DNA from: Pseudomonadales bacterium
Lineage (GTDB): Bacteria; Pseudomonadota; Gammaproteobacteria; Pseudomonadales; UBA5518
Direction: 5' to 3'
Assembly (NCBI GenBank): GCA_024234165.1
Contig: JACKOP010000005.1
Coordinates: forward strand, 234,078 to 298,077
Length of the DNA stretch: 64,000 bases
The position numbers and the translations under genes were made by a program. Positions 4,541 to 38,500 of the stretch are shown piece after piece. The notes under the pieces are model-generated. The model had not been told where the DNA came from, searched no databases, and worked only from the letters and a program-made list of their open reading frames with translations. Numbering within the stretch: the first letter of the stretch is position 1; each line of letters begins with the position of its first letter.

Positions 4541-4558
4541 GTCTCTGCTGCACCCCGC

Positions 4559-4775
4559 GTAGGTCGGGTTTCAACCCATGTAGGTCGGGTTTCAACCCGA
4601 CAGGTGCCCGATCGGAGGCATACATCGTCGGCATGAATGCCGACCTACGCCCAACGCATGAATGCCGACCTACGCCCAACGCATGAATGCCGACCTACAC
4701 CCAACGCATGAATGCCGACCTACACCCAACGCATGAATGCCGGCCTGCGCCCAACGCGCGAATGCCGGCCTACGG
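4559..4775. repeat. REP-like hairpin cluster plus a 25-bp tandem array
   Basis: Two copies of GTAGGTCGGGTTTCAACCC (4559 and 4580). They are followed by about 5.8 tandem copies of GCATGAATGCCGACCTACGCCCAAC starting at 4631. Confidence 0.85.
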
Positions 4776-12582: not shown

Positions 12583-12754
12583 GTCGGATTTCAATCCGAC
12601 GGTGTTGTGGGTCGGGTTTCAGCCCGACCGGGGCCGGCACAATCCCTGTCGGCATGAATGCCGACCCACATTTCCGTCGGCACGAATGCCGAGCCACGTA
12701 GGTCGGGTTTCAACCCGACAGGTGTGGCGATTCCCGTCGGCATGAATGCCGACC
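12579..12754. repeat. REP-like hairpin cluster (same families as 4559-4775)
   Basis: GTAGGTCGGATTTCAATCCGAC overlaps the TAG stop. It is followed by GTCGGGTTTCAGCCCGAC, GTCGGCATGAATGCCGAC (x2), GTCGGCACGAATGCCGAG and GTAGGTCGGGTTTCAACCCGAC. Confidence 0.85.
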
Positions 12755-12778
12755 CACGCAAAAAAGGAGCTGGTTGCA

Positions 12779-23251: not shown

Positions 23252-23624
23252 TTAGTTTCGCTCCGCTTTTCGTGCAGAAGACAAAGTTGATGCTGTTCAG
23301 CGCGCAGGCGTTGTTGCACCAGAAAGCGCTCGCCGTGATTTCGCCGAGTCGTGGTTCAAACCGAGCGGCTATCGGCCAACGGTGATATGCACCAGTTTTG
23401 GGGCATTTGCCGTTGTCAGCCGCTGACGTCAGTTGTTCCGCGCGCGACGGAGTCTGAGCCAGGCTTGTGTGCGTTTGGAGATATCGCAACGGGGCTTGCA
23501 AGCGTGTGGCCGCGCGCGGCAGAGTAAGGCTGGATAGCGCGCTGTGCGTGAAGTTTGGAAAGTCGAAACTAACCCATCGCTGCAGGCACGACGGCCCTGT
23601 CGGGCCGCGGCCTGAGCTCAAACG
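23252..23624 (+). mobile_element. gene cassette 1 (373 bp, no convincing ORF)
   Basis: Begins TTAGTT after G23251. Its attC R'' is AACTAAC, the exact complement of G+TTAGTT. Confidence 0.6.
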
Positions 23625-23630
23625 TTATGC
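23567..23630 (+). other. attC recombination site of cassette 1
   Basis: R'' is AACTAAC and R' is GTTATGC. Internal stems CAGGC/GCCTG and GGCCC/GGGCC. Confidence 0.7.
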
Positions 23631-23700
23631 GCTCTTGTGGCCGCGCAGCCTGATTCATGTGAAAATCTACGCCATTCTTCCTAGTCGGCACCCAATCTCC

Positions 23701-24339
23701 ATGAAATCCCCGAAGTTTGACCGTTCTAAGCATGTGTACCGAAACGATGCGTTCGCCGAATTGGTAAAGGACGCAGTTCGTTTCTTCAACGGGACCCCGG
23801 TTCATACGCTGCCTCCCCCAGAAGAATTTTTTGGAACGGGGGTATATGCGTTGTATTACACGGGCAAGAATCCGCAATACAAAAAGTACGCAGACCTAAA
23901 TCGGCTGGCTTACAGCCATCCAATTTATGTTGGCAAGGCTGTGCCAAAAGGCTGGCGGCAATCGCGAATCTCAGATGGCGAGGGGGTGCAGTCGAAGGAA
24001 CTGTATACGCGGTTGCGCGAGCATTCGAGGAGTATTACGCAGGGTGCCGGCTTAGAGCTTAAGGATTTCTCCAGCCGTTTCGTAATCTTCGAAAAAGAAG
24101 GCTCCGATATGATCGGAACCATTGAGGCTGCGCTAATTAAGTTAAACCGGCCGCTTTGGAATACCGCTGTTGATGGGTTTGGCAATCATGATCCCGGTAG
24201 TGGGCGCTATGAGCAGGCCAAGTCAGATTGGGATGTCATCCATCCTGGTCGATCTTGGGCAGAAAAATGTAATGGCCGTCCTACAGACAAGCGCACGATT
24301 CTCAGCAATATTGAGCGTCATCTTAAAAGTCTCGGGTGA
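23701..24339 (+). CDS. GIY-YIG restriction endonuclease, Eco29kI-like
   Basis: KFDRSKHVYRND, GVYALYYTG, PIYVGKAVPKGWRQSRI, IEAALIKLNRPLWNT, WDVIHPGRSWAEKC. From memory this resembles Eco29kI. It is immediately upstream of a C5-methyltransferase. Confidence 0.8.
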   Translation: MKSPKFDRSKHVYRNDAFAELVKDAVRFFNGTPVHTLPPPEEFFGTGVYALYYTGKNPQYKKYADLNRLAYSHPIYVGKAVPKGWRQSRISDGEGVQSKELYTRLREHSRSITQGAGLELKDFSSRFVIFEKEGSDMIGTIEAALIKLNRPLWNTAVDGFGNHDPGSGRYEQAKSDWDVIHPGRSWAEKCNGRPTDKRTILSNIERHLKSLG

Positions 24340-25511
24340 TTGCAATGCGTTCTTTGGAAGTGTTCTCGGGGGCCGGCGGCCTCGCAAAGGGCCTTGAGCA
24401 AGCGGGCTTCGAGCACTCTGCTTTTGTAGAGTTCAACAAGCATGCATGTGCATCACTCTCAGAGAACTTCACGCCAGAGAGAGTTTTCTTTGGAGACATA
24501 AGAGATTTTGATTTGGGTAGCGTGGGGTCTGTTGATGTTGTTGCAGGTGGCCCGCCGTGTCAGCCGTTCTCTCTTGGTGGCAAGCACAAAGCAGATCAAG
24601 ATGATCGAGACATGTTTCCTTATGCCATTAGAGCAATTGAGTTCCTTACGCCTAAGGCCTTTGTTTTTGAGAACGTAAAGGGCCTGCTTAGGCCAAGTTT
24701 CGCTGAGTATTTTGAATACATTATTCTTCGCCTTACTTATCCGGGCTTCTCAGCGAAGCCAAAGATGGCGTGGCAAGATCATCTGGCGCAACTTAGAGCG
24801 GCGAACAAGTTCGCGTACGCCGGCGTTAAGTATGACGTTCAATATAAACTCATAAACGCTGCGGACTATGGCGTTCCTCAAACCCGCGAGCGTGTGGTTA
24901 TCGTTGGAATTCGTTCAGACCTTAAGAAAACATGGTCCTTCCCGGCTGCAACACACTCGGAAGATCGGCTGCTTTGGGAAATGCATGTGTCGGGAGAGTA
25001 CTGGCGGCGGCACCGAGTGGCGCTTGCAAAGCGCCCCAGCATCGAACCGTCCATGCAAGAGCGGATCGCGCGCATCAACGAGCGTTATGGGCTCTTTGAG
25101 CCCGAACTTCTACCTTGGAAAACTGTGCGAGACGCGCTCCATGACGTTCCTGATCCACGGAGCAAGCATGGCATTGCAGACCACATCTTTAAGGATGGGG
25201 CGCGTAGTTACGCTGGCCACACTGGCAGTGATTATGACTGGCCTTCAAAGACCATTAAGGCCGGAGGCCATGGCGTGCCGGGCGGGGAGAACATGATCCG
25301 CTACGCGGATGAAAGCATTCGCTACTTCACCGTCTTTGAAGCAAAACGCATCCAAACCTTCCCGGATGATTTCATTATCAAAGGTGCGTGGGGCGAGGCA
25401 ATGCGTCAAATTGGCAACGCCGTCCCGGTTGCTCTAGGTGAAGTCTTTGGCACCCATCTTTGGTCGCTGCTCTCGAAAAAATATTCCGCTGCTAAGGCGT
25501 CTGCCAAGTAA
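24336..25511 (+). CDS. DNA (cytosine-5)-methyltransferase
   Basis: LEVFSGAGGL (motif I), GGPPCQPFS (motif IV), ENVKGL (motif VI), QTRERV, and GNAVPV (motif X). The GTG at 24336 overlaps the upstream stop. An alternative ATG lies at 24345. Confidence 0.93.
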   Translation: MIAMRSLEVFSGAGGLAKGLEQAGFEHSAFVEFNKHACASLSENFTPERVFFGDIRDFDLGSVGSVDVVAGGPPCQPFSLGGKHKADQDDRDMFPYAIRAIEFLTPKAFVFENVKGLLRPSFAEYFEYIILRLTYPGFSAKPKMAWQDHLAQLRAANKFAYAGVKYDVQYKLINAADYGVPQTRERVVIVGIRSDLKKTWSFPAATHSEDRLLWEMHVSGEYWRRHRVALAKRPSIEPSMQERIARINERYGLFEPELLPWKTVRDALHDVPDPRSKHGIADHIFKDGARSYAGHTGSDYDWPSKTIKAGGHGVPGGENMIRYADESIRYFTVFEAKRIQTFPDDFIIKGAWGEAMRQIGNAVPVALGEVFGTHLWSLLSKKYSAAKASAK

Positions 25512-25535
25512 TTGGCAATTAGTTTGAGTGTTCGC

Positions 25536-25589
25536 GCATAACGAATAGGGATAGGTCGCGCGCAGCCGCGACCTGATCCCGGGTTGAAC
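25536..25589 (+). other. attC recombination site of the R-M cassette
   Basis: GCATAAC-GAATAGGGATAGGTCGCG-CGCAGC-CGCGACCTGATCCCGG-GTTGAAC. The R'' GCATAAC is the complement of the cassette start G|TTATGC at 23624-23630. Confidence 0.85.
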
Positions 25590-25813
25590 AAGCCCGTGCC
25601 CTGGAGTGGCGAACGCTTTTTTATAGGGGAAAGCTTTTCGGACGTGTGAGGGCATCGTTGCCCGATCAGGCGGATGATTTTCACCAGACGAACGCGGCCC
25701 GCACCCGCGAGCGCAGCGTGTCTTGCCTGTCTGGATCCATCAGTGGCGCGAGGTCCTCCTCGGGAGTGGATTGCCGGCGAGCACACCACGCTCTCCGGGC
25801 CAGCGGATCATGT
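25584..25813 (-). mobile_element. truncated second copy of the recombinase/IS91 unit (transposase-distal end only)
   Basis: It is the reverse complement of about 31300-31536, with few mismatches. IS66 cuts it at 25814. Confidence 0.75.
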
Positions 25814-25834
25814 GTAAGCGGTCAAACGACGCCG

Positions 25835-27448
25835 TTATATCTTTCCGCAGGCGAGTATGGATTTCATGGGATCGTGGGCGAAGCGTGCCTTCCATTCTCG
25901 CGGCGTGAGCTCGACCGCCCGACTCGCCGGATGCACGCTGATGCGCTGCAGCACATCGACCAGGTAGGTGTAAGGATCCACGCCCTGTAGGCGGCAACTC
26001 ACCAGCAGGCTCTGGATAACCGCTACCCGCTCGGCACCGACCTCGGTCCAACAGAAGAGCCAATTGCGCCGTCCCATTGGAACCGCCCGCAGGCTGCGCT
26101 CCAGGTGGTTGGTGTCGATCGGCACATCCGGATCCGACAAGAACACCCGCAGGCTCGTCACCCGCGCCTTCGCGTACTGGATCGCCTTGGCGAGCGGGTT
26201 ACTCGGCAACAGATCCATGCGGTGGCACTGGTCGTCACACCAGTGCCAGAAGCGGTCGACGATCGGCTCGCTGTGCTGTGTTCGGTAAGCGAGCTTGTGT
26301 TCCCGGTCCAGGTTCTGTTCCCGGATGATCTGCTCGTGCCGGTACAGCGCGGCAATCATCGCCAGCGCCTCGGCCGCCGCCTGCGGTTCGGCATCCTGTG
26401 CCTGCTCGAAGCCTCGGCGGCAATGCGCCCAACAACTCGCGTGGGTAACGCCACCTTTGCGTGCCGCATAGGCGCTGTAGGCGGCGTAGCCGTCCGAGAG
26501 CAGCGTTCCCCGGAAGTCCGGCCCCAGGATTTTCTCGACATGGTGGTGCGCCCGGGTCGGCGCGTAGTGGAAGACGATCTCGTCGTCCTCGCCGTAGATC
26601 GGCCAGAGGTAGGCTGGCGCATCTTGCCCTGCTTCTCGCGTCCGCCTTGATCGGGGTCTCGTCCATCGCCACCACCGATCCGATCCGAGGAGGATGTGGG
26701 CGTGCTGGGCCGCTGCGATGGGGCGCAGCAGATCGATGGCCCGTCCGCTCCAGTTGCTGAGGCTGGTACGGCTCAGCTGGATGCCGCACTGGGCGATCCG
26801 CTGGTGCTGGCGATACAGCGGCAGGTGGTAGCAGAACTTGTCGACGAGCATTCCGGCCAGCAGGCTCACATCGGCCACGCAGCGCTCGAGCACGCTTGCC
26901 GGTGCCGGGGTGCTGACGATGCGCTGCTCTTCGACCAGCTTCCGGTCTGGTAGTGGTACTCGATGATCCCGTAGCTGCCCGGGCGTTGCGCCGCGGCGGT
27001 AGCTGACGCGCTCGGAGACCAGCTCGCGCCGATCCTCGGGTACGGCAGCAATCGCTGGATCGACGATGGTGACCACGTCGCGGGTGACATCCGGGCCAAA
27101 GCGCAATCCTGAGTCGTTCACCGCCGCATCGCGCACCTTGCGCTGGCGCGTGTAGGTGATCGACTGCTCGGGAGGCGGTGGGGATTTCTGCGGAGGTTCA
27201 AGCACACCGAGCGCATCGAGCAGGTTGCCCTGTACGGCGGGATCGATGACCAGTTGCTTTTCGCTCTTCTGCCCGAAGAGCTGGCGCTTGAACCAGTCGA
27301 GCTGCTGCTTCAGCGTTGCAATCTCGGCGCCGTACTGCTGCTTCAGCGTGCCGAGTTCCGTGCCAAACTTCTGCGTCATCGCGACCATCTGCACCGTAAG
27401 TTGCGCATTGGTTTGTTCGAGTTCGGCGATGCGCGAAGCGGTGTTCAA
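25835..27448 (-). pseudogene. IS66 TnpC transposase with two compensated frameshift patches
   Basis: Compared with copy 2, VVAMDETPIKAGREKQGKMRQ is replaced by out-of-frame DRWWRWTRPRSRRTREAGQDAP. LAQRPGSYGIIEYHYQTW is replaced by RGATPGQLRDHRVPLPDR. Confidence 0.75.
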
Positions 27449-27502
27449 GGGCGGAAAATACTGCAGGAAAACCGTGCCGCCATTGTACCGGAATGCCCCT
27501 GC

Positions 27503-27862
27503 TCATGCCGCTGTTCGGTAGCGTTTTCGCTGCCTTTTTATCTCGACGTCGACGCCTTCGAGCAGCGCCAGAAACTCGGTGGCGCACAGCGCACGTTTCA
27601 CGCGTCCATCGCGTGTCATCAGGCGGGCAAAGTGTCCGCGCTCGAGTCGCTTCGACCAGATCCAGTAGCCGCCCGTCTCGAAGCCGAGCACCTTGATCTG
27701 CGTGGCGCGGCGGTTGAGAAACGCGAACCATTGGCTGCTACTGCCCAGCGGGTCTTCTCCCAGGTGTTGCTTCACCCGCGCCGACAACCCATCGAACGAG
27801 CAGCGCATGTCGGTGGGCTCCAGACACAGCCAGATGCGCGATGCGCTGCTGACGCTCAGCAT
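27503..27862 (-). CDS. IS66 Orf2 (TnpB)
   Basis: MLSVSSASRIWLCLEPTDMRCSFDGLSARV. 119 aa, intact. Confidence 0.85.
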   Translation of the reverse strand: MLSVSSASRIWLCLEPTDMRCSFDGLSARVKQHLGEDPLGSSSQWFAFLNRRATQIKVLGFETGGYWIWSKRLERGHFARLMTRDGRVKRALCATEFLALLEGVDVEIKRQRKRYRTAA

Positions 27863-28200
27863 GGCGCGTCCCGGCGCAGCCGCAGCACAACGCCTGCGCC
27901 CAAATCAAGCTCTACTTCCCATGCGGGTGCGGCCGGTGACGCCTCGGTCTTGTCGACTATCGGTGCGGTCAATTCGACAAACAGCGCTTCAGGCCGAACA
28001 CCAACAGCGTCAACAACCCGTGCTCCGCGCAGCTTGCGCCGCCACAGCTCGAAGGTGCTCTTCGCCAGGCCGTGGCGGGTGCAGAACGCCTGCTGCGAAA
28101 CACCGCTTGCCTCGAACTCGCTGATCAACGCGCGCCACCGTGCCGCGCTGTGACGCGCATACTTGCGCACAGAACCTGAACCCGTCGATGCCGAACCCAT
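27856..28200 (-). CDS. IS66 Orf1 (TnpA, HTH)
   Basis: MGSASTGSGSVRKYARHSAARWRALISEFEASGVSQQAFCTRHGLAKSTFELWRRKL. Confidence 0.75.
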   Translation of the reverse strand: MGSASTGSGSVRKYARHSAARWRALISEFEASGVSQQAFCTRHGLAKSTFELWRRKLRGARVVDAVGVRPEALFVELTAPIVDKTEASPAAPAWEVELDLGAGVVLRLRRDAPC

Positions 28201-28288
28201 GGCGATACTCCTCCAACACCACTTCGTTGAAGCAGAGCATCGCGAAGGTTCAGACGGCATAACAGAACGGCGTGGTTTGGACGGTTAC

Positions 28289-29199: not shown

Positions 29200-29311
29200 T
29201 TGAACGAAGCCGCTTCGCGGCAGGAACAAGACGAGAAGAACGAGACGCCAAAACCGGGAAACTTCTCCGGCACCCCCAGGCCCGGGTGTGCATCACCAAA
29301 GGAGAAGCGAC

Positions 29312-30217
29312 ATGGATTCATCGGAGCAAACCCGTTTTGACGCACTGTACGCGAAGCATCTTAGAGCACTGAAGCTTCAAGGCAAGGCAGCGAAGACGAT
29401 CGATGGTTACGCACGAGTGCTGCGCCGGGTAGCCGCACACTTCGATCGCTGTCCGGATCGACTGGACGCGGAAGACTTCAAGTCCTACTTCGCCTCGCTG
29501 ATCGACGAGCGATCGTGGAGCCTGGTGAAGATCGAACGCTGCGGACTGCAGTTCTTCTACGAACACGTCCTGGAGCGGGAGTGGCCGTGGGTGGGCATGC
29601 TCAAGCCGCCGGTGGTGCACGCGCTGCCCGATGTGCTCAGCGTCGACGAGGTCGCACAGATCATCCGGGCGAGTCGCGAGCGGCGCTACCGGACGTTCTG
29701 GCTGACGACCTACAGCCTGGGCCTGCGTCTGGGCGAAGCGCTGCGGTTGCGGATCGGTGATATCGACAGCGCCCGTGCCCAGGTCCATATCCGCAGCGGC
29801 AAGGGGCACAAGGACCGCTTCGTGGTGCTGCCGGCACTGACCCTGCAGTGCCTGCGCCGCTACTGGCGTGATCATCGCCACCATGAGCTGTTGTTTCCAG
29901 GGCGTGCTGGACCGCAGGGTATTCCGGCTGCCACCTTCATGGATCGCGGCAGCACCCAGAAGGCGTTTGCCCGTGTCGTGGCCGACTGCGGCATCCGCAA
30001 GCGGGTGTCGATCCACAGTCTTCGCCATGCCTACGCCACCCACCTCATCGAAGTCGGCCTGAATCTGCGCGGTGTGCAGGAACTGCTCGGTCATGCCTGC
30101 CCGAAAACCACGGCGCGCTATGTGCACATGACGGACAAGTGCCGTGATGATCGCCGCGTGCTGATCGACGGCTTGATGGGCGAGTTGCACCAGCGTCTGC
30201 GGGAGGCTCGGTCATGA
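29312..30217 (+). CDS. tyrosine recombinase (XerD/IntI-like, without the IntI-specific insertion)
   Basis: AAGGAG sits 7 nt upstream of the ATG. LQFFYEHVLEREWPW, GLRLGEALRLRIGDID, GKGHKDR, SLRHAYATHL, LLGHACPKTTARYVH (R-K-H-R-H-Y set). Confidence 0.85.
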   Translation: MDSSEQTRFDALYAKHLRALKLQGKAAKTIDGYARVLRRVAAHFDRCPDRLDAEDFKSYFASLIDERSWSLVKIERCGLQFFYEHVLEREWPWVGMLKPPVVHALPDVLSVDEVAQIIRASRERRYRTFWLTTYSLGLRLGEALRLRIGDIDSARAQVHIRSGKGHKDRFVVLPALTLQCLRRYWRDHRHHELLFPGRAGPQGIPAATFMDRGSTQKAFARVVADCGIRKRVSIHSLRHAYATHLIEVGLNLRGVQELLGHACPKTTARYVHMTDKCRDDRRVLIDGLMGELHQRLREARS

Positions 30218-30250
30218 CCCAAGCCCTCGCCCCCCCTGCGTCTGGCCGAG

Positions 30251-31285
30251 GTGTTCGACGCCGGACACGCCGCCCTGATGGCGCGCTACGGAGCGCGCCT
30301 GCACCCCCGACAACACCAGGCGATGGCCGCCATCCGGGGCTGCCGAAGCGGTGAGCTCGGTGAACTGCACTGGCGCTGTCCCGACTGCAGTGCACGACAC
30401 CACACGCCCCGCTCCTGTGGTCATCGCAGCTGCCCGGCCTGCCAGAACCACTGCACCTCGCAGTGGCTCGATCGGCAACGCCGTAAGCTCCTGCCCGTGG
30501 ACTACTTCATGGTGACCTTTACCTTGCCGGCACCCTTGCGTGCCGCCGCGCAGGCGTACCCCGAAACCGTCTATGCCGCCTTGTTTCGCGCCGCCTCGCA
30601 GACCCTCAACGGTTTCGCGACGCGAAAGCTCAAGGCGGAACTCGGCCAATGCGCGGTACTGCACACCCACAACCGTCGTCTCGATCTGCACCCGCACGTG
30701 CACGTCATCGTGCCCGGAGGCGCAATCGATGCGCGGCGCCGGCAGTGGCGAAAACTCTCCGGGCGTTACCTCTTCAACGCCTTTGCCCTGGCCCGGGTGT
30801 TCCGCGCCCGTATGCTGCAGGCCCTGCAGCTCGCCGGCGTGCCGATCCCTGTCGGCCTGCCGCCGAAATGGGTGGTCGACTGTCGCCGTGTCGGTCGTGG
30901 CGAGCCGGCATTGCAGTACCTCTCGCGCTACCTCTATCGGGGTGTCATCCGCGAGCGCGACCTCCTCGACTACGACCGCCTCGCCGGCACCGTCACCTTC
31001 CGCTACCGTGACGCCAAGACCCGCCAGCCCGCACAGCGCACCCTGCCCATCGCCGAGTTCCTGTGGCGCGTGCTCGCCCACGTCCTGCCGACCGGATTCC
31101 GTCGTGTGCGCGAGTACGGATTCCTGCACTGCCGAGCCAGGCGACGCCTCGTTCTCGTGCAACTCGTCTTGCATGTGCTGGTCCAGGCGGCAACGTTGCG
31201 ACCACGCCCACCGCTGTGTTGCATGCGCTGCCATACCCCGATGATCGTCGTCGCCGTCACCAAACGCCGCAGACCCGACGGCTGA
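30251..31285 (+). CDS. IS91-family HUH-Y2 rolling-circle transposase (N-terminus uncertain or frameshifted)
   Basis: Zn-finger CPDCSARHHTPRSCGHRSCPACQ, HUH motif HPHVHVIVPGG, Y2 motif YLSRYLYRG. An ATG at 30214 (ATGA with the upstream stop) is out of frame by one C in a C7 run. Confidence 0.85.
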   Translation: MFDAGHAALMARYGARLHPRQHQAMAAIRGCRSGELGELHWRCPDCSARHHTPRSCGHRSCPACQNHCTSQWLDRQRRKLLPVDYFMVTFTLPAPLRAAAQAYPETVYAALFRAASQTLNGFATRKLKAELGQCAVLHTHNRRLDLHPHVHVIVPGGAIDARRRQWRKLSGRYLFNAFALARVFRARMLQALQLAGVPIPVGLPPKWVVDCRRVGRGEPALQYLSRYLYRGVIRERDLLDYDRLAGTVTFRYRDAKTRQPAQRTLPIAEFLWRVLAHVLPTGFRRVREYGFLHCRARRRLVLVQLVLHVLVQAATLRPRPPLCCMRCHTPMIVVAVTKRRRPDG

Positions 31286-31529
31286 GGCAACGTTCGCGGA
31301 TCGCCACATGATCCGCTGGCCCGGAGAGCGTGGCGTGCTCGCCGGCAATCCACTCCCGAGGAGGACCTCGCGCCACCGATGGATCCAGCCAGGCAAGACG
31401 TGCTGCGCTCGCGGGTGCGGGCCGCGTTCGCCTGGTGAAAATCATTCCGCCTGATCGGGCAACGACGCCCTCACGCGTCTGAAAAGCTTTCCCCTATAAA
31501 AAGCGTTCGCCACTCCGGGGCACGGGCTT

Positions 31530-31577
31530 GTTCAACCCGGGATCAGGTCGCGGCTGCGCGCGACCTATCCCTATTCG
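31530..31577 (+). other. attC-like site at the end of the recombinase/IS91 unit
   Basis: GTTCAAC-CCGGGATCAGGTCGCGG-CTGCGC-GCGACCTATCCCTATTC-G. G plus the unit's first 6 nt TTGAAC gives GTTGAAC, the complement of GTTCAAC. Confidence 0.7.
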
Positions 31578-32694: not shown

Positions 32695-33033
32695 ATGAGC
32701 AAGCTCGATCCCATTACTCCCGGCAAACTTCTCTTGGAGGAGTTCCTAGCGCCTATGGGGATCAGCCAGTACCGCCTGGCGAAGGAAGTCGATGTGCCGG
32801 CGCAGCGCATCAGCGAAATCGTTTCTGGCAAGCGCGCCATTACTGCGGATACGGACTTGCGGCTGTGCCGTTTCTTCGGTCTTTCCAGCGGCTACTGGTT
32901 GCGTGCGCAGGCCGCGCACGATACGGAGGTTGCCGAGAGGGAACTCGGCCCGGTTCTGAAGCGGATCAAACCATGGGCAGCAAATGCGACCGAACAACAC
33001 GGCGCAGCGGACGCCTCTTCGAGGCGCCGCTGA
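32695..33033 (+). CDS. higA: HigA-family antitoxin (XRE HTH)
   Basis: ITPGKLLLEEFLAPMGISQYRLAKEVDVPAQRISEIVSGKRAITADTDLRLCRFFG. Confidence 0.85.
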   Translation: MSKLDPITPGKLLLEEFLAPMGISQYRLAKEVDVPAQRISEIVSGKRAITADTDLRLCRFFGLSSGYWLRAQAAHDTEVAERELGPVLKRIKPWAANATEQHGAADASSRRR

Positions 33034-33048
33034 CCGCCATCGTTAGCC
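32992..33048 (+). other. probable attC site of the higBA cassette
   Basis: R' GTTAGCC (33042-33048) defines the next cassette start. It has an imperfect hairpin GGCGCAGCGGACGCC / GGCGCCGCTGACCGCC. The R'' GAACAAC is weak. Confidence 0.45.
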
Positions 33049-33053
33049 CCGCT

Positions 33054-33371
33054 TCAAATACCGGTAATGAGCAAGTCGAGAGCAGCAATAATTTCGTCAC
33101 GCTTCGAAGAAAGATCGATCGCCTTCGCTCCAAGCATCTTCTTCGGAACGCCGGCCAGTTGCGGCGTCACCATGACGTACTGCTTACCTTCAATCTCAAA
33201 GACTGGAGTCAACGTTTCGAGGATCTTTCCTTTCATCGCAGCTACTGAGTAGAGGGGCGCCACAACTCGCGTGGCCAGATCTTCAATCAGATCGCTTTGA
33301 ACGTTGAGCAGATAAGGAACGGTGCTCTTGGTGTCAGGGTTGGCGTTCTTGTGAACGGAAAATTGCGTCAT
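33054..33371 (-). CDS. ccdB: CcdB-family gyrase toxin
   Basis: MTQFSVHKNANPDTKSTVPYLLNVQSDL...LTPVFEIEGKQYVMVTPQLAGV. 105 aa. Confidence 0.85.
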   Translation of the reverse strand: MTQFSVHKNANPDTKSTVPYLLNVQSDLIEDLATRVVAPLYSVAAMKGKILETLTPVFEIEGKQYVMVTPQLAGVPKKMLGAKAIDLSSKRDEIIAALDLLITGI

Positions 33372-33616
33372 CAGAAGTTCCGCAGTCCGTCGCTGAATAC
33401 GCCGTGCTTCTCTACGTGGTCGTTATAGGCGTCAATCGAGGCCTTATTGTCGGCTAGCCATTTGGCCTTCTGTTTCTCCCGCAGGGCATTGGCCAGAGCC
33501 TGCTCCAGGGTGGCGGACAGGTTTATGTCCAATTCCTTGGCTTTGGTGAGCAAGTCCCCGTTAACGCTGAGATTTGCAGGTCGCTTGGGGGCATGGGTAT
33601 CGTAGGTCGGCACCAT
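33371..33616 (-). CDS. ccdA: CcdA-family antitoxin
   Basis: 81 aa. KRPANLSVNGDLLTKAKELDINLSATLEQAL. Its stop abuts the ccdB start. Confidence 0.8.
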   Translation of the reverse strand: MVPTYDTHAPKRPANLSVNGDLLTKAKELDINLSATLEQALANALREKQKAKWLADNKASIDAYNDHVEKHGVFSDGLRNF

Positions 33617-33688
33617 AGCGGGCTCCCTCTGGGGTTTGTATGCGCATACGATATACGCATATCAAGGCGCAAGCCAGTGTGGTGGCGG

Positions 33689-33766
33689 GGCTAACGAATA
33701 GGTGAGCCTGACCAGACTACCCTCCGCGCTGCGCGCTCCGGCGGCGGCTCATGCACGCCGTTAGGG
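33689..33766 (+). other. attC site of the ccdAB cassette
   Basis: R'' is GGCTAAC, the complement of the cassette start G|TTAGCC. R' is GTTAGGG. Internal stem TGAGCC/GGCTCA. Confidence 0.8.
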
Positions 33767-33979
33767 TTGCTTGGCAAGTGCTTGCGCCAGCGTCATCGCG
33801 ATCGCCGGGAATTCCTTGAGTATCTTCTTGTCGGCAGTAACGAGTTTCGCGTTCAGGCGCTTTGCCAGCGCAACAAACTCACAGTCGTACGCAGAGCACT
33901 CGCTGGATTCCACCAGCCTCAGGACGTCGAGGGAGGGAACTTCATATTCCGAATCTGCGTAAGCGGTCAAACGACGCCG

Positions 33980-35590
33980 TTATATCTTTCCGTAGGCGAG
34001 TATGGATTTCATGGGATCGTGGGCGAAGCGTGCCTTCCACTCGCGTGGCGTGAGCTCGACCGCCCGACTCGCCGGATGTTCGCTGATGCGCTGCAGTACA
34101 TCGACCAGGTAGGTGTAGGGGTCAACGCCCTGTAGGCGGCAACTCACCAGCAGGCTCTGGATAACCGCTACCCGCTCGGCACCGACCTCGGTCCAACAGA
34201 AGAGCCAATTGCGCCGTCCCATTGGAACCGCCCGCAGGCTGCGCTCCAGGTGATTGGTGTCGATCGGCACATCCGGATCCGACAAGAACACCCGCAGACT
34301 CGTCACACGCGCTTTTGCGTACTGGATCGCCTTGGCGAGCGGGTTACTCGGCAACAGATCCATGCGGTGGCACTGGTCGTCACACCAGTGCCAGAAGCGG
34401 TCGACGATCGGCTCGCTGTGCTGTGTTCGGTAAGCGAGCTGGTGTTCCCGGTCCAGGTTCTGTTCCCGGATGATCTGCTCGTGCCGGTACAGCGCGGCGA
34501 TCATCGCCAGCGCTTCGGCCGCCGCCTGGGGTTCGGCATCCTGTGCCTGCTCAAAGCCTCGGCGGCAATGCGCCCAGCAACTCGCGTGGGTGACGCCACC
34601 CTTGCGTGCCGCATAGGCGCTGTAGGCAGCGTAGCCGTCCGAGAGCAGCGTTCCCCGGAAGTCCGGACCCAGGATCTTCTCGACATGGTGGTGCGCCCGG
34701 GTCGGGGCGTAGTGGAAGACGATCTCGTCGTCCTCGCCGTAGATCGGCCAGAGGTAGGCCTGGCGCATCTTGCCCTGCTTCTCGCGTCCCGCCTTGATCG
34801 GGGTCTCGTCCATCGCCACCACCGATCCACTGAGGATGTGGGCGTGCTGGGCCGCTGCGATGGGGCGCAGCAGATCGATGGCCCGTCCGCTCCAGTTGCT
34901 GAGGCTGGTGCGGCTCAGCTGGATGCCGCACTGGGCGATCCGCTGGTGCTGGCGATACAGCGGCAGGTGGTAGCAGAACTTGTCGACGAGCATTCCGGCC
35001 AGCAGGCTCACATCGGCCACGCAGCGCTCGAGCACGCTTGCCGGTGCCGGGGTGCTGACGATGCGCTGCTCTTCGACCAGCTTCCAGGTCTGGTAGTGGT
35101 ACTCGATGATCCCGTAGCTACCCGGGCGTTGCGCCAGGCGGTAGCTGACGCGCTCGGAGACCAGCACGCGCCGCTCCTCGGGTACGCCAGCAATCGCCGG
35201 ATCGACGATGGTGACCACGTCGCGGGTGACATCCGGACCAAAGCGCAGTCCCGAGTCGTTCACCGCCGCATCGCGCACCTTGCGCCGGCGCGTGTAGGTA
35301 ATCGACTGCTCGGGAGGCGGTGGGGACTTCTGCGGAGGTTCAAGCACGCCGAGTGCATCGAGCAGGTTGCCCTGCACGGCAGGATCGATGCTCAGCTGCT
35401 TCTCGCTCTTCTGCCCGAAGAGCTGACGCTTGAACCAGTCGAGCTGCTGCTTCAGCGCTGCGATCTCGGCGCCGTACTGTTGCTTCAGTGTGCTGAGATC
35501 CGCGCCAAATTTCTGCGTCATCGCGGCCATCCGCACCGTGAGTTGCGCATTGGTGTGTTCGAGTTCGGCGATGCGCGAAGCGGTGTTCAA
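33980..35590 (-). CDS. IS66 TnpC DDE transposase (apparently intact)
   Basis: 536 aa. Contains VVAMDETPIK and the C-terminal CWAHCRRGF region. Confidence 0.9.
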   Translation of the reverse strand: MNTASRIAELEHTNAQLTVRMAAMTQKFGADLSTLKQQYGAEIAALKQQLDWFKRQLFGQKSEKQLSIDPAVQGNLLDALGVLEPPQKSPPPPEQSITYTRRRKVRDAAVNDSGLRFGPDVTRDVVTIVDPAIAGVPEERRVLVSERVSYRLAQRPGSYGIIEYHYQTWKLVEEQRIVSTPAPASVLERCVADVSLLAGMLVDKFCYHLPLYRQHQRIAQCGIQLSRTSLSNWSGRAIDLLRPIAAAQHAHILSGSVVAMDETPIKAGREKQGKMRQAYLWPIYGEDDEIVFHYAPTRAHHHVEKILGPDFRGTLLSDGYAAYSAYAARKGGVTHASCWAHCRRGFEQAQDAEPQAAAEALAMIAALYRHEQIIREQNLDREHQLAYRTQHSEPIVDRFWHWCDDQCHRMDLLPSNPLAKAIQYAKARVTSLRVFLSDPDVPIDTNHLERSLRAVPMGRRNWLFCWTEVGAERVAVIQSLLVSCRLQGVDPYTYLVDVLQRISEHPASRAVELTPREWKARFAHDPMKSILAYGKI

Positions 35591-35647
35591 GGGCGGAAAA
35601 TACTGCAGGAAAACCGTGCCGCCATTGTACCGGAATGCCCCTGTTGT

Positions 35648-36003
35648 TCATGCCGCTGTTCGGTAGCGTTTTCGCTGCCTTTTTATCTCGACGTCGACGC
35701 CTTCGAGCAGCGCCAGAAACTCGGTGGCGCACAGCGCGCGTTTCACGCGTCCATCACGTGTCATCAGGCGTGCAAAGTGTCCGCGCTCGAGTCGTTTCGA
35801 CCAGATCCAGTAGCCGCCCGCCTCGAAGCCGAGCACCTTGATCTGCGTGGCGCGACGGTTGAGAAACGCGAACCATTGGCTGCCACCCAGTGGGTCTTCT
35901 CCCGGTGTTGCTTCACCCGCGCCGACAACCCATCGAACGAGCAGCGCATGTCGGTGGGCTCCAGACACAGCCAGATGCGCGATGCGCTGCTGACGCTCAG
36001 CAT
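35648..36003 (-). pseudogene. IS66 Orf2 (TnpB), frameshifted
   Basis: Relative to copy 1 it has a 3-nt and a 1-nt deletion (CCCAGGTG to CCCGGTG). This splits MLSVSSASRIWLCLEPTDMRCSFDGLSARVKQH from ...DPLGGSQWFAFLNRRATQIKVLGFE. Confidence 0.7.
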
Positions 36004-36046
36004 GGCGCGCGCCCGGCGCAGCCGCAGCACCACGCCTGCGCCCAAA

Positions 36047-36343
36047 TCAAGCTCTACTTCCCATGCGGGTGCGGGCTGGTGACGCCTCGGTCTTGTCGAC
36101 TATCGGTGCGGTCAATTCGACAAACAGCGCTTCGGGCCGAACGCCCGCCACATCAGCGTTTCGGGTTTCGCGTAGCTTGCGCCGCCACAGCTCGAAGGTG
36201 CTCTTCGCCAGGCCGTGGCGGGTGCAGAACGTCCGCTGCGAAACGCCGCTCGCCTCGAACTCGCTGATCAGCACGCGCCACTGTGCCGCGCTGTGGCGCG
36301 CATACTTGCGCACGGAATCTGAACCCGTCGATACCGAACCCAT
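36047..36343 (-). CDS. IS66 Orf1 (TnpA) with an altered, shortened C-terminus
   Basis: 98 aa. It diverges from copy 1 after ...DKTEASPA because of a 1-nt insertion. Confidence 0.6.
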   Translation of the reverse strand: MGSVSTGSDSVRKYARHSAAQWRVLISEFEASGVSQRTFCTRHGLAKSTFELWRRKLRETRNADVAGVRPEALFVELTAPIVDKTEASPARTRMGSRA

Positions 36344-36648
36344 GGCGATACTCCTCCAACACCACTTCGTTGAAGCAGAGCATCGCGAAGGTTCAGACGG
36401 GATAACAGAACGGCTTCGTTTGGCCGGTTACGAATCTGCGAGCAGAGTCTCGGCTTCAGTTTGAATGGAATAGGCGTGCTCGAAGGAAAGCAGCTCCTTT
36501 CTTATATATAGCGCAAGCACATTGCGCAGCTCGCTGCGCCAAAGTGCGGGGGCGGCCCAATGAGGTTCCTTTGCCAGCAGCTGCTCTGCCTCGGCGCTGA
36601 GGTCTGAGGGCAGGTAGAGGTAGGCAATGATGTTGCTATCAACAACGA

Positions 36649-36894
36649 TCACGGGCGGCCTTCATCTATGGCCTCGAGAATATCGGCCGCTTTGAACTTC
36701 TTGCCCTTGAGGCTCTCCCGAATCTGCCGAGCGCGGGCCATATGCTCCTCATTGCTGGCCTTGGAAGGCAGCAAGACCCGCTCCAGGCAGGCTATGGCTT
36801 CGCTGTTAATGCTCCGGTGGTGGGCATCGGCAGCCTGCTTGAGGCTGTCGTAGATCTCATCGGGTATGTTCTTGAGGGTAATGGTTGCACCCAT
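36649..36894 (-). CDS. Arc/FitA-like ribbon-helix-helix antitoxin (VapB-type)
   Basis: 81 aa. MGATITLKNIPDEIYDSLKQAADAHHRSINSEAIACLE. Its stop overlaps the disrupted PIN gene start. Confidence 0.75.
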   Translation of the reverse strand: MGATITLKNIPDEIYDSLKQAADAHHRSINSEAIACLERVLLPSKASNEEHMARARQIRESLKGKKFKAADILEAIDEGRP

Positions 36895-36956
36895 AGCGGC
36901 TTACCTTGGAACCATATTGGAACCAATATGGTATCTCTGGGCGCCGGGCGGAGCAA

Positions 36957-37010
36957 CCCTAACGAATAGGGATAGGTCGCGCGCCGCCGCGACCTGAGCC
37001 CGGGTTAGGG
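36957..37010 (+). other. attC site of the vapBC::IS66 cassette
   Basis: CCCTAAC-GAATAGGGATAGGTCGCG-CGCCGC-CGCGACCTGAGCCCGG-GTTAGGG. R'' is the complement of the cassette start G|TTAGGG at 33760. Confidence 0.88.
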
Positions 37011-37391
37011 CCGCTCTACGCGTCGTTCCGTATGCTTCTTGGTATTCTTGATGAAGTTGGCGTCGAAGGTCTTGAGCGTGTCCTGATCCTTGCTTAGTGC
37101 AAGATGAAACGCATCGGCAAAGTCGAATCCCACCTCGTGCCAGGCAATGACCTGGGCAATGAGCGTGCCGTCGCTAACTGTCACGTTTTGTAGGCCACAT
37201 ACGCGCCGGAATGCGGTGCATATGTCTGCTGGGGTTAAGTCGAAGGCGGCGCGTAATACCCACTCGGTTTCCAGCAGCACGGTGTCCGGAATGAAGATGT
37301 CTTCGGAAGCGAAGAGTTTGTGGCTGGCTTTGCTCTGGATCGCGTTGTCGCTGACCAGCAGCCGTACCAGTACATTGGTATCAATTGCCAT
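37005..37391 (-). CDS. PIN-domain toxin (VapC family)
   Basis: MAIDTNVLVRLLVSDN...IFIPDTVLLETEWVL...DFADAFHL. Confidence 0.85.
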   Translation of the reverse strand: MAIDTNVLVRLLVSDNAIQSKASHKLFASEDIFIPDTVLLETEWVLRAAFDLTPADICTAFRRVCGLQNVTVSDGTLIAQVIAWHEVGFDFADAFHLALSKDQDTLKTFDANFIKNTKKHTERRVERP

Positions 37392-37644
37392 CACGCCACT
37401 TACTCCGCATGTCGTGAGCCAATGCTGCCGCAATTTCCTCGTCCGTCTTCGGGGATACCTTATCTTTGAACATGCCAAAGACCTCGGAGAGGTCCGAGGG
37501 GGCAAAAGTGGCCTTGGGCTTAAGCAGGAGGCCGTCCCCGGTGTCTATCACCATGAGTTCAAGGCCGGGCTCCCAGTGATGGGTGCTCCGGAAGGCCTTG
37601 GGTATGATCACTTGGCCTTTGCTGGAGAGTTTAGTGGTTTCCAT
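37381..37644 (-). CDS. AbrB/MazE/SpoVT-family antitoxin
   Basis: METTKLSSKGQVIIPKAFR. 87 aa. 11-nt overlap with the PIN gene. Confidence 0.85.
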   Translation of the reverse strand: METTKLSSKGQVIIPKAFRSTHHWEPGLELMVIDTGDGLLLKPKATFAPSDLSEVFGMFKDKVSPKTDEEIAAALAHDMRSKWRDGN

Positions 37645-37715
37645 AAGGGCGCCCTAAAAGTAAGACGAAGGTAAGATTATGCCTGCGGGGCCTGCCTGTC
37701 AAATCGAGCAGGCTG

Positions 37716-37769
37716 CCCTGACAAATAGGGATAGCCCGCGCGCAACCGCGACCTGATCCCGGATTGAAC
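37716..37769 (+). other. attC site of the PIN/AbrB cassette (slightly degenerate)
   Basis: CCCTGAC-AAATAGGGATAGCCCGCG-CGCAAC-CGCGACCTGATCCCGG-ATTGAAC. R'' has one mismatch to the complement of the cassette start TTAGGG. R' has A in place of G. Confidence 0.7.
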
Positions 37770-37830
37770 AAGCCCGTGCCCCGGAGTGCCGGGCCAAAGG
37801 TTTTCCAGTCCGGCAAGCCTTGGCGGCAGG

Positions 37831-38253
37831 CTATGCGGCCGCTGTCATGTGCCGGCGGTGGACGAGATCGAACAGAACCCCGGCCACGATCAGCAGCACG
37901 ATGGCTTCCACCACCTGCACGCCCAGCAGCAGCCAGGTCGCGCCTTCCACGCCGACGAAGAACTGCATGTTGGGCAGCACGACGAACAGTCCGCCCCACA
38001 GGCCCCACCAGATCGCCTTGCCGACGCCGCCGGCCGGATAGAGCCGCATGAACAACCACAGGAACATGGTGATCTGGACCAGGTAGGTCAGGAACAGGAA
38101 GGGCATCAGCGCGGCCATTTCCGCGCTGGAGCGCTGCGGGTAGCCTTCGTACAGATTGGGCACGGCCACTGCGTGAAACGCCACATCGGCCACGAAGAGG
38201 ATCACGGCCAAAATCACGCTCGTCACCAGAAACCGCACCGTCAGCTTGTTCAT
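37831..38253 (-). CDS. small integral membrane protein (4 predicted TM segments), function unknown
   Basis: Starts MNKLTVRFLVTSVILAVILFV. Hydrophobic throughout. Confidence 0.55.
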   Translation of the reverse strand: MNKLTVRFLVTSVILAVILFVADVAFHAVAVPNLYEGYPQRSSAEMAALMPFLFLTYLVQITMFLWLFMRLYPAGGVGKAIWWGLWGGLFVVLPNMQFFVGVEGATWLLLGVQVVEAIVLLIVAGVLFDLVHRRHMTAAA

Positions 38254-38443
38254 GGATTTCCCCTCATCGATGCCGCTTTCGTGCAGTTGGTATTTGTATA
38301 CGTGCTGATCCGTAATGCAAGCAATCGCCATTTGCCGCTGCTGTCTTCGCTGTTCACCCGCGCGCCGACGTGCGCCATGTGTTTCTTCTTTGGTGATGCA
38401 TACCCCGGGATGAAGCGCTCGCGCGGGTCCGTGCCCGACTGAC

Positions 38444-38500
38444 GTGACCTACTGGATCCACCCTGAGGCTGAGGCCGAACTGGGTGATGCCGTCAGACAT
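38444..38500 (+). pseudogene. N-terminal stub of a ParE/RelE-family toxin
   Basis: V-TYWIHPEAEAELGDAV matches the usual ParE N-terminus. The similarity ends at the island/narL junction. Confidence 0.4.

Follow-up and report, generated by a model that had tools for sequence, protein, structure and literature searches.

Probable remnants of three visits by an IS91-like element with its own attC-like hairpin to an integrase-less cassette array

Introduction

The closest described relatives of the mobile unit analysed here belong to the IS91 family (IS91, IS801 and IS1294, with the ISCR relatives), and especially to its two-ORF members with an upstream gene of the phage-integrase type. The end of IS91 that lies downstream of the transposase gene is flanked by GAAC/CAAG. 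Integron cassette arrays are invaded at their attC sites by two other kinds of mobile DNA, the IS1111-attC elements and the group IIC-attC introns. The introns usually lie in the orientation opposite to the cassettes (PMC9229058).

Here we analyse a window of 64,000 nucleotides from a Pseudomonadales bacterium, which contains an integrase-less cassette array and a complete copy of the unit. We propose, with a probability of roughly three in four, that three short segments of this array, at 25542-25813, 37722-37788 and 36963-37004, are the leftovers of three separate visits of the element to attC sites.

Results

The reference copy of the unit (29200-31577, plus strand; 2378 bp), delimited from its Pfam domains and from reading of its flanks, splits a gene for an AAA_22 ATPase. 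It begins with TTGAACGAAGCCGCTTCGCGGC at 29200 and, judged from its domains, is a two-gene element of the IS91 family, with a predicted IntI/Xer-like tyrosine recombinase (29288-30217, plus strand; Pfam Phage_integrase and SAM_4) followed by a predicted Y2 HUH transposase (30251-31285, plus strand; Y2_Tnp and Zn_Tnp_IS91; PF04986, 150.5 bits, and PF14319, 92.4 bits). Only domains of the Y2_Tnp and Phage_integrase types are encoded, and Pfam detected no DEDD transposase of the IS110 family in the unit. The recombinase matches the IntI model TIGR02249 in two pieces of 84 and 60 bits, which do not reach the cut-off of 265. It lacks model positions 178-236, the IntI-specific additional domain, and aligns with the host IntI at 30% identity, with gaps across the IntI-specific insertion.

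The ends of the unit resemble those of a cassette. It starts at G|TTGAAC and finishes with GTTCAAC, a 42-nt stem-loop and TATTCG|; its inverted boxes are formed by G|TTGAACGAAGCC at the left end and by the right inverted repeat CGGGCTTGTTCAAC (31522-31535, plus strand), to which the terminal hairpin (31536-31577, plus strand) is joined. On folding, the hairpin shows one bulged base on the 5' arm of the unit's coding strand and has spacers of 2 and 5 nt, which are atypical, those of canonical attCs being about 5 and 6 nt. If the unit were circularised, its ends would form an attC-like site with the predicted junction ...CCTATCCCTATTCG|TTGAACGAAGCC, in which the R boxes would pair perfectly and, on the non-coding strand of the genes, a single G would bulge from the 3' arm. 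The site in the ATPase gene, CCGCTGG|ATGGGC, is not an attC; it was entered without target duplication, and the flank of the right end there is CCAT.

The hairpin belongs to the unit and not to neighbouring cassettes. Eight unit ends in the genome have the same final base and an identical 35-nt hairpin core, and they differ in the DNA beyond. A covariance model of the unit end found 11 sites in the 3.7-Mb genome, all of them linked to a unit, and no unit-independent copy of the hairpin; the resident attCs of the same arrays have sequences quite unlike it. The stem is supported by covariation: 93% of cells are paired, six pairs are changed on both sides, and the stem score of 0.385 was matched by none of 500 shuffles, with slid controls reaching at most 0.156. 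The relatives, whose transposases are 41-79% identical, come from Lysobacterales, Xanthomonas, Desulfobacteraceae, Motilimonas, Photobacterium and a Chloroflexota MAG. The hairpin and both unit ends are conserved, with compensatory changes, in relatives of other orders and phyla, and of 400 further genomes sampled in the class 27 (about 7%) have the hairpin.

A reading of the window from sequence only had recognized a second, inverted copy of the unit, truncated by IS66, in the array next to the restriction-modification (R-M) cassette. This copy is real: 25542-25814 aligns with 31305-31577 in inverted orientation (95.6% over 274 columns, E 2e-122 by BLASTN), and the repeat search found it as well, as three arms. 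The sequence-only reading had placed it at 25584-25813, as the reverse complement of the transposase-distal end, directly after an attC crossover at G25583|TTGAAC. The description of the segment holds; its limits, however, were too narrow, for the match runs 42 nt further left than T25584, to C25542 (equivalent to 31577), and takes in the whole stem-loop CGAATAGGGATAGGTCGCGCGCAGCCGCGACCTGATCCCGG at 25542-25583, which the sequence-only reading had given to the R-M cassette as its attC. Since this stem-loop is the unit's own end, the supposed crossover is abandoned, and the true junction, GCATAA|C (A25541|C25542), falls within R'' of the R-M attC.

The copy thus spans 25542-25813. Its terminal hairpin (25542-25583, minus strand) is identical to the other unit ends at 35 of 35 core positions and scores 67.7 bits with the covariance model; the right inverted repeat TTGAACAAGCCCG and the 3' untranslated region follow (25584-25813, minus strand; 95.6% identical to 31306-31536). 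The copy stops 20 nt short of the transposase stop codon and retains no transposase gene sequence. Its target, the R'' box GCATAAC in the attC of the R-M cassette, which is of the Eco29kI type (25536-25542, plus strand), lies 25 nt past the methylase stop codon at 25511 and complements the cassette start TTATGC at 23625. The canonical attC before the R-M cassette (23567-23630, plus strand) has spacers of 5 and 6 nt and bulged bases on the 5' arm, and is 96% identical, reversed, to the attCs at 883315-883365 and 892591-892641 of another contig (C1), which belong to an array running away from intI. These features make the plus strand the top strand of the local array, and the unit at the R-M cassette is reversed relative to this attC.

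IS66 does cut the copy at 25814, as had been claimed: IS66 copy 1 (25814-28288), identified by its IS66 transposase domains, starts at G25814 (GTAAGCGGTC...). Its flanks, GATCATGT and CGCCTGAT, contain no 8-bp duplication; IS66 copy 2 (33959-36431) has one, GAATCTGC. The remainder of the R-M cassette attC after the R'' box is absent, and BLASTN found no further fragments of the truncated unit copy in the genome, including beside other IS66 ends. The missing target duplication suggests that a deletion or recombination associated with IS66 removed the remainder of both the unit and the R-M attC, and, since no fragment lies beside another IS66 end, that the missing part of the unit copy was deleted rather than inverted elsewhere. 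An empty R-M site was not found among 80 loci of methylase relatives (70-79% amino-acid identity), which do not lie in cassettes and include no close cassette copy; one of the 80 has an attC-like site downstream. The 17 genomes of the family, searched with the 3' end of the R-M cassette and with vapBC cassette DNA, gave nothing usable and no close cassette copies. These searches having recovered an empty site for neither cassette, we propose by analogy that the copy entered a complete R-M attC.

The unit is strongly associated with attC junctions, as the sequence-only reading had held: eight of the nine right ends in the genome, with the solo hairpin described below counted, adjoin a GTTA-type R box (flank (Y)TAAC), and the same is seen in relatives, 26 of 28 of which have the flank GTT... 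The preference that had been deduced from this, for GTTGAAC/GTTCAAC R boxes, was misplaced. Those are the unit's own inverted boxes and not its target; they accompany the unit into the non-attC site and are kept in distant relatives. The targets are R'' boxes that differ from one another (GCATAA|C, ACCTAA|C, GCCTAA|C, ACATAA|C and CCCTAA|C). Nor is the 25-mer shared by the copies (37764-37788) a general attC-flanking motif: throughout the genome, both it and the hairpin occur only in linkage with the unit.

To orient arrays we could use neither the direction of genes, as the C1 array holds toxin-antitoxin cassettes both ways, one each, nor the cassette rule (the first six nucleotides complement the R'' box), by which the array strand had earlier been fixed. 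The rule is symmetric under reverse complement and so cannot tell which attC belongs to which body. On C1 the array runs on the minus strand away from a true intI (475 bits); in the plus strand the bulges of its attCs fall on the 3' arm, and that strand carries the four units. When the two flanks of unit c1c, or of unit c1d, are joined, a complete attC results (ACCTAAC...GTTAGGT and ACCTAAC...GTTAGGC, respectively) with no target duplication, and at 942-944 kb of C1 there is a displaced attC remainder similar to attC(aadA). The C1 array also holds an IS110-family transposase gene, at 876539-877474.

The same arrangement is found outside this genome. At four MAG loci (L007, L008, L020 and L025) the left flank is the bottom strand of an attC with an extra G. 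On the Escherichia coli IncC plasmid NZ_LT985243.1, a relative annotated in RefSeq as "IS91 family transposase" and "site-specific integrase" interrupts attC(aadA1) of a class 1 integron in reversed orientation: on one side stands aadA1 (...GTCTAA|C), on the other the rest of attC(aadA1) followed by qacEdelta1, and the joined flanks give an intact attC. On a Shewanella ANA-3 plasmid, a 250-nt right-end remnant that begins just past the transposase stop codon adjoins ...GCTAA|C of a cassette gene that is encoded on the other strand. Wherever the orientation of the array is clear, the unit lies backwards at the AA|C of R''.

Behind the last cassette of the array in the window lies a further remnant. 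The 25 nt at 37764-37788 that had been described there as a scar of the unit are present, though they are only the inner part of it: the full scar is the 67-nt decayed right terminus of a unit copy (37722-37788, minus strand), consisting of the hairpin, the right inverted repeat and 19 nt of the lineage-specific 3' untranslated region. Between C37722 and G37788 there are five mismatches; two disrupt the stem and a further one the GTT. The scar was recovered by the repeat search (an inverted arm of 68 nt at 93%), by BLASTN (E 5e-21) and by the covariance model (48.4 bits), and the 19-mer AAGCCCGTGCCCCGGAGTG occurs in the window at three places only, in the unit, the truncated copy and the scar, against a chance expectation of 0.05. 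The target of this third visit is the R'' box CCCTGAC (originally CCCTAAC; 37716-37722, plus strand) of the vapBC toxin-antitoxin cassette, which starts with TTAGGG at 37005 and has a PIN-domain ORF at 37005-37505 on the minus strand. The DNA beyond the scar (37789-38484) is unique in the genome, absent from relatives and without a Pfam hit; a left-end motif, the sign of a miniature element, was not found after the scar.

A trace absent from the sequence-only reading is a solo hairpin with no unit body (36957-37010, minus strand), detected by the repeat search and by the covariance model (39.9 bits). It runs from C36963 to G37004, with CCCTAAC on one side and GTTAGGG on the other, and stands in place of the attC of the PIN/antitoxin cassette interrupted by IS66.

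The orientation of this right-hand segment (32989-38440) is settled only as far as a good probability. The strand of the attC between the higBA-like and ccdAB gene sets (32989-33048) can be determined only weakly, with mixed bulges on folding and no homologous attC of known orientation found for it, and the fold of the attC at 33689 is likewise ambiguous. All four gene sets of the segment, among them a membrane-protein ORF that terminates 42 nt from the scar, are encoded by the minus strand, the top strand of the hairpins themselves. None of 66 loci with ccdAB homologues lies in a cassette, and the segment is not oriented by them.

Discussion

The above results show a mode of insertion that mirrors the usual cassette crossover at G|TT in R'. 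The element enters resident attCs within R'', at AA|C, with no target duplication, and as a consequence comes to lie backwards relative to the array and splits the attC: the upstream cassette keeps the R'' box, which adjoins the element's hairpin, and the remainder lies past the element's recombinase end. From the observed boundaries, targets and orientations we infer the following order of events. In the case of the R-M copy, in GCATAA|C, IS66 would have struck 20 nt downstream of the transposase stop codon, and the IS66-associated event would then have taken the rest of the copy together with the remaining R-M attC. The vapBC copy may have been reduced by an ordinary deletion to its last 67 nt, which would have decayed since. 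The solo hairpin would be explained most simply if the hairpin had recombined, G|TT x G|TT, with the displaced rest of the attC, so that the element body was excised.

Our first candidate for the enzyme that moves the element is its own recombinase, which would act on folded single strands, at slightly less than even odds. The HUH transposase, suggested by analogy of the TAAC| flank with the GAAC/CAAG flank of IS91, may be regarded as a serious but lesser possibility, and the host IntI is an unlikely one. A 277-bp deletion that removes the zinc finger of the transposase is common to three copies at different attCs; it is compatible with several mechanisms and separates none of them.

A different parse of the R-M junction would make the stem-loop the resident attC of the array, and the unit body from TTGAAC an ordinary cassette with reversed genes, placed there by the host IntI. 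On the plus strand, R'' (GCATAAC), the hairpin and G|TTGAAC can indeed be read as an attC that satisfies the cassette rule, and the solo hairpin (36957-37010) is the only attC-like site between two cassettes. The rule, however, lends this parse no support, because it is strand-symmetric. Moreover, the hairpin goes with every copy of the unit, the one in the ATPase gene included; it has no unit-independent occurrence in the genome, it is unrelated in sequence to the other attCs of the same arrays, and together with the preceding CGGGCTTGTYCAAC it is kept at unit ends across phyla. The present evidence largely refutes a resident attC, which we consider highly improbable. The stop codons of the right-hand segment raise another question, as they lie in or beside minus-strand R'' boxes (the TAA of vapC and of the K-toxin within CCCTAAC, the ccdB stop 5 nt away). 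If 32989-38440 were a minus-strand array, the hairpins would be forward attCs, the vapBC and membrane-protein cassettes would have acquired the element's hairpin, and the scar would be a chimeric cassette 3' end. The gene sets at 33054-38331 are all on that strand, the bulged C of the hairpins is on its 5' arm, and the structural ambiguity of the attCs at 32989 and 33689 leaves room for such an array. We think it unlikely: the unit end is backwards in every securely oriented case, toxin-antitoxin cassettes are often reversed, a canonical G|TT x G|TT event can account for the solo hairpin only in a plus-strand array, and the 19 nt of unit 3' untranslated region in the scar would still need a deleted unit copy.

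The short copies could also have been short from the beginning, as primary products of abortive rolling-circle transposition, with a putative start at the hairpin end and an early stop, or as non-autonomous right-end modules. Pieces that consist of the right end only recur in this genome (67 nt, 272 nt and, at position 947118 of C1, 320 nt), the Shewanella ANA-3 piece starts just past the transposase stop codon, 18 of 28 sampled hairpins of other genomes have no transposase within 1.5 kb, and miniatures of 450-820 nt with both ends exist. For the 272-nt copy, however, IS66 suffices, because the copy ends exactly at the IS66 terminus, and no site can be recognised where the scar ends on its inner side. 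An origin as short products is, in our judgement, distinctly unlikely.

We therefore retain three visits followed by loss as the preferred reading. An IS91-type element would then have come to this small array on at least three occasions, leaving attCs that are hybrid or replaced, and this probably alters which cassettes the integron integrase can still move. Annotation by palindrome and cassette rule gives the hairpin to the wrong cassette, so that invaded arrays are mis-parsed. It is also conceivable, though we hold it to be speculative, that by leaving its hairpin the element re-equips neighbouring genes with a new attC-like site; the solo hairpin, the hybrid of R'' and hairpin at R-M, the scar beside the membrane-protein gene and the orphan ends elsewhere would be examples. 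If so, a hairpin carried into non-attC sites such as the ATPase gene could put an attC beside ordinary genes and so open a way for attCs to be replaced and possibly for new cassettes to arise, a long-standing open question.

Compared with an integron cassette, the unit is likewise bounded by crossover-type G|TT junctions, has a 3' imperfect palindrome with RYYYAAC/GTTRRRY boxes, begins with six nucleotides (TTGAAC) that complement the R'' box in GTTCAAC, and has a hairpin with one extrahelical base on the expected arm. Unlike a cassette, it carries two genes, its own recombinase and transposase, has spacers of 2 and 5 nt, lies backwards and in R'', not in R', in every array whose orientation can be determined, and occurs in a non-attC site as well. 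With the IS91 family it shares the Y2 HUH transposase with the IS91 zinc-binding domain, insertion without target duplication (in the ATPase gene, at c1c and c1d, and in the E. coli copy) and a structured end downstream of the transposase gene. The short conserved flank next to that end, (Y)TAAC, is analogous, not identical, to that of IS91. It departs from the family in its cassette-like ends (G|TTGAAC ... GTTCAAC-hairpin-G|) and in targeting the R'' box of integron attCs in one orientation; the literature that could be searched yielded no description of such a rule. Like the IS1111-attC group of the IS110 family and the group IIC-attC introns, the unit is a specific invader of cassette attC sites, but its enzymes are unrelated to the DEDD transposase of the former and the reverse transcriptase and ribozyme of the latter, and neither of these has an attC-like hairpin of its own, as the unit does. 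The family of this element, present also in a clinical E. coli class 1 integron, would thus be a third kind of attC-specific invader.

Remnants of the element in the cassette array

The stretches 25542-25813 and 37722-37788 are remnants of an IS91/recombinase element that invades attCs. The sequence-only reading had recognised copies of such an element in the array, though it erred in their limits and in the assignment of the hairpin. It placed at 25584-25813 an inverted copy of that end of the 29200-31577 unit which lies away from the transposase, and both a repeat search and BLASTN agree, except that the copy starts at C25542 and not at T25584. Three contiguous inverted arms were found by the repeat search of the window (25542-25621/31498-31577, 99%; 25618-25674/31446-31502, 95%; 25674-25814/31305-31445, 96%), and BLASTN merges them into a single alignment (95.6% over 274 columns, E 2e-122). 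The 42-nt stem-loop CGAATAGGGATAGGTCGCGCGCAGCCGCGACCTGATCCCGG, previously taken for the attC of the restriction-modification (R-M) cassette, lies inside this inverted repeat, i.e. it is unit sequence.

The R-M cassette (23625-25541, plus strand; Eco29kI-type endonuclease and C5 methylase) meets the remnant at GCATAA|C (25541|25542). The attC before it (23567-23630, plus strand) has top-strand geometry and matches, with 96% identity and in reverse orientation, two attCs of the integrase-linked array on another contig of the genome (C1); this assigns the R-M cassette to the plus strand, so that the minus-strand unit remnant is backwards relative to the array. The rest of the R-M attC would be expected past the recombinase end of the truncated copy, but is gone along with that copy's genes; a genome-wide search found no other pieces of this copy. 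IS66 copy 1 (G25814-28288) entered it 20 nt past the transposase stop, and the absence of a duplication in its flanks (GATCATGT and CGCCTGAT) points to a later IS66-associated deletion or recombination. IS66 copy 2 (33959-36431) has an 8-bp duplication, GAATCTGC. An IS66-family element lies 20-30 nt past the transposase stop of an IS91 unit both at window position 25814 and in an unrelated Lysobacterales MAG (locus L010, 4577-6815; duplication GCTTTTCG), and IS66 may have a hotspot in the 3' untranslated region of the unit.

The second remnant, reported as a 25-nt scar, is real but longer: the match covers C37722-G37788 (67 nt) with five mismatches, two of which disrupt the stem and one of which turns GTT into ATT. 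The 19-mer after TTGAAC occurs in the window only in the truncated copy, the scar and the intact unit, against an expectation of 0.05, so that the repeats are not chance. Of the lineage-specific 3' untranslated region the scar retains 19 nt, all matching the intact window copy, and it therefore descends from a unit of the same lineage, which rules out a generic motif. It follows the vapBC cassette's R'' box, CCCTGAC (originally CCCTAAC); this cassette starts TTAGGG at 37005 and has a PIN-domain ORF on the minus strand. The sequence beyond it (37789-38484) is unique and absent from relatives; here a probable membrane protein ORF (37831-38331, minus strand, 166 aa, several hydrophobic segments, no Pfam match) ends 42 nt from the scar's inner edge. 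The scar is a deleted unit copy whichever strand the right-hand array has.

A third, hairpin-only copy (C36963-G37004) lies between CCCTAAC and GTTAGGG, where the PIN/antitoxin cassette interrupted by IS66 would have its attC, which it replaces. If hairpin-G|TTGAAC recombined with the displaced attC remainder-G|TTAGGG in a canonical G|TT x G|TT event, the body of the element would be lost and precisely this arrangement would remain.

The hairpin moves with the unit

The genome (3.7 Mb, five contigs), of which the window is C5:234078-298077, carries four further unit copies at C1:874.5-885.5 kb and one at C1:942.3-944.2 kb, a right-end piece of 320 nt at C1:947.1 kb, a left-end piece at C1:241.6 kb, and a degenerate miniature of about 200 bp (C1:867048-867251), in which unit positions 228-384 are fused to a divergent hairpin, GGGATGGGTCGCGGCTGCGCGCGGCCCATCCC. 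Unit left ends all start G|TTGAACGAAGCCGCTTCGCGGC, and all right ends terminate at the base equivalent to 31577 with an identical hairpin core (35/35), while the DNA outside the right ends varies per copy (...CACATAA, CGCATAA, CGCCTAA, TACCTAA, CACCTAA and so on). The 29200-31577 copy is not in an attC; it lies within a transposon remnant, where it splits an AAA_22 ATPase gene without duplication (CCGCTGG|ATGGGC). A covariance model built on the right inverted repeat and hairpin and run on the whole genome gave 11 sites, namely eight unit ends (67.7 bits), the scar (48.4), the miniature (43.5) and the solo hairpin (39.9). Resident attCs in the same arrays have sequences quite unlike the hairpin. 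From identical ends with differing neighbours, the ATPase-gene copy, the unit linkage of all 11 sites and the dissimilar resident attCs it follows that the hairpin moves with the unit, and it is ruled out as this array's attC type. The poorly folding attC 33689-33766, between ccdAB and the next cassette, starts GGCTAAC GAATAGG, and its first 8 nt agree with the same-strand reading of the element hairpin; the site may be hybrid, or no more than an attC that has diverged. Elsewhere in the window, arrays of 25-28-nt units with short palindromes (4555-4798, GTCGGCATGAATGCCGAC; 12575-12757, GGTCGGGTTTCAACCCGAC) look like REP-type intergenic repeats.

The architecture is kept in relatives, loci with transposases 41-79% identical, from Lysobacterales, Xanthomonas, Desulfobacteraceae, Motilimonas, Photobacterium, a Chloroflexota MAG and others. 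Their left end is TTGRACGAAGCCGCTNCGCGGC, and their right end reads CGGGCTY-GTYCAAC, spacer, stem, loop GCTNCG, return stem, TATCCYTATTC-G|TT. Given these conserved ends, the GTTGAAC/GTTCAAC boxes, earlier interpreted as a target preference, are the element's own inverted boxes and not a property of the target. The hairpin stem covaries, with 93% of cells paired and both sides changed in 6 of 13 pairs; its score (0.385) was reached by none of 500 shuffles, and slid controls gave at most 0.156. The motif is present in 27 of 400 genomes drawn evenly from the class, and at 28 sampled sites the right inverted repeat precedes the hairpin in 26 and TT follows it in 26. On a Chloroflexota MAG contig (L026, 644-740) a unit end is directly followed by another GTTCAAC and hairpin, making tandem ends; at another locus (L158, 422-468) the hairpin is fully symmetric (AAC GAATAAGGATAGATCGCG ... 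CGCGATCTATCCTTATTC GTT), and the model matches both strands.

Right-end remnant pieces measure 67, 272 and 320 nt in this genome and 250 nt in Shewanella. No transposase was found within 1.5 kb upstream of 18 of the 28 sampled hairpins of other genomes, and some transposase-less hairpins belong to miniatures, whose left end lies 450-820 nt upstream. The remnants may have arisen by deletion or by abortive transposition.

Position and orientation of insertion

C1 carries a true integron integrase gene, intI (894116-895054, plus strand; 475 bits, cut-off 265), followed by an aadA-like gene and other cassette ORFs on the minus strand. In plus-strand reading, all canonical attCs at C1 868-893 kb have spacers of 6 and 5 nt, and in the 3' arm the first bulge comes after 3 bp; such bottom-strand geometry is consistent with an array running away from intI. 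The four units there are on the plus strand and the array on the minus, so the units are backwards. At two of them (c1c and c1d) only the final six bases are missing from an otherwise complete attC on the left, the right flank gives TTAGGT or TTAGGC, and joining the flanks rebuilds ACCTAAC...GTTAGGT and ACCTAAC...GTTAGGC. Seen from the top strand, the unit has entered R'' at its AA|C bond, the mirror of the normal crossover. The arrangement at C1:942-944 kb is alike, with a displaced remainder resembling attC(aadA), and four MAG loci (L007, L008, L020, L025) each have as left flank an attC bottom strand that includes the extra G. An IS110-family transposase ORF between two IS91 units of the intI-linked array (C1:876539-877474) may be an IS1111-attC-type invader in the same array.

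The clearest backwards case is the class 1 integron of an E. coli IncC plasmid (NZ_LT985243.1), ordered intI1-aac(6')-Ib3-aadA2-cmlA1-aadA1, ...GGCAAATAATGTCTAA|C, reversed element, GTTCAA|C AATTC GTTCAAGCC...GTTAGAT, and then qacEdelta1. On a plasmid of Shewanella sp. ANA-3, the 250-nt right-end remnant (L239, NC_008573.1 42430-42679) adjoins ...GCTAA|C of an opposite-strand cassette gene; it is 94.8% identical to the E. coli plasmid element, so that environmental Shewanella, too, harbours close relatives of this clinical-plasmid element.

The right-hand segment of the window might instead be a minus-strand array, its hairpins being forward attCs of vapBC and the membrane-protein gene. The attCs 32989-33048 and 33689-33766 fold ambiguously, homologues give no orientation information, and every gene set in 33054-38331 is encoded by the minus strand, where stop codons fall within or close to R'' boxes of that strand. 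However, the backwards rule is uniform at all securely oriented sites, toxin-antitoxin cassettes are frequently reversed (the single C1 array has both orientations), and a plus-strand array explains the solo hairpin more simply, so we consider a minus-strand array unlikely.

Possible mechanism

Circularisation would bring the element's ends together, and the strand opposite its genes would then read 5'-GTTCAA|C GAATA (stem-loop, one bulged G on the 3' arm) GG GTTGAAC, resembling the bottom strand of an attC whose R boxes pair perfectly. The products seen correspond to an exchange, at RYYYAA|C, between this strand and resident attCs folded as top strands. The recombinase of the element shares 30% identity with the host IntI and does not have the insertion specific to IntI. 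Three copies at three different attCs (C1:877824-885459) have one 277-bp deletion in common, through which the recombinase gene has lost its end and the transposase its zinc finger. With 99.7% identity between two of these copies, the defective derivative has spread recently. With a zinc-finger-less derivative at three attCs, the transposase is therefore not needed in cis, and an intact copy could act in trans for transposase-defective derivatives. As the moving enzyme we favour the element's own recombinase, at slightly under even odds; the HUH transposase is a more tentative candidate and the host IntI an improbable one.

Relation to known elements

New here are the corrected boundaries of both remnants, three kinds of footprint (IS-truncated end, decayed end and solo hairpin), the demonstration that the cassette rule can neither orient an array nor assign attCs, and, as an idea, that the element replaces or donates attC-like sites. 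No rule by which IS91-type elements target attCs was found in the searchable literature. Because of its orientation and position, the element is not an ordinary cassette; an IS1111-attC element was also considered and rejected. It is a member of the IS91 family, with which it shares the transposase type and the lack of duplications. IS91 is flanked by GAAC/CAAG, and the TAAC| flank of the element recalls this.
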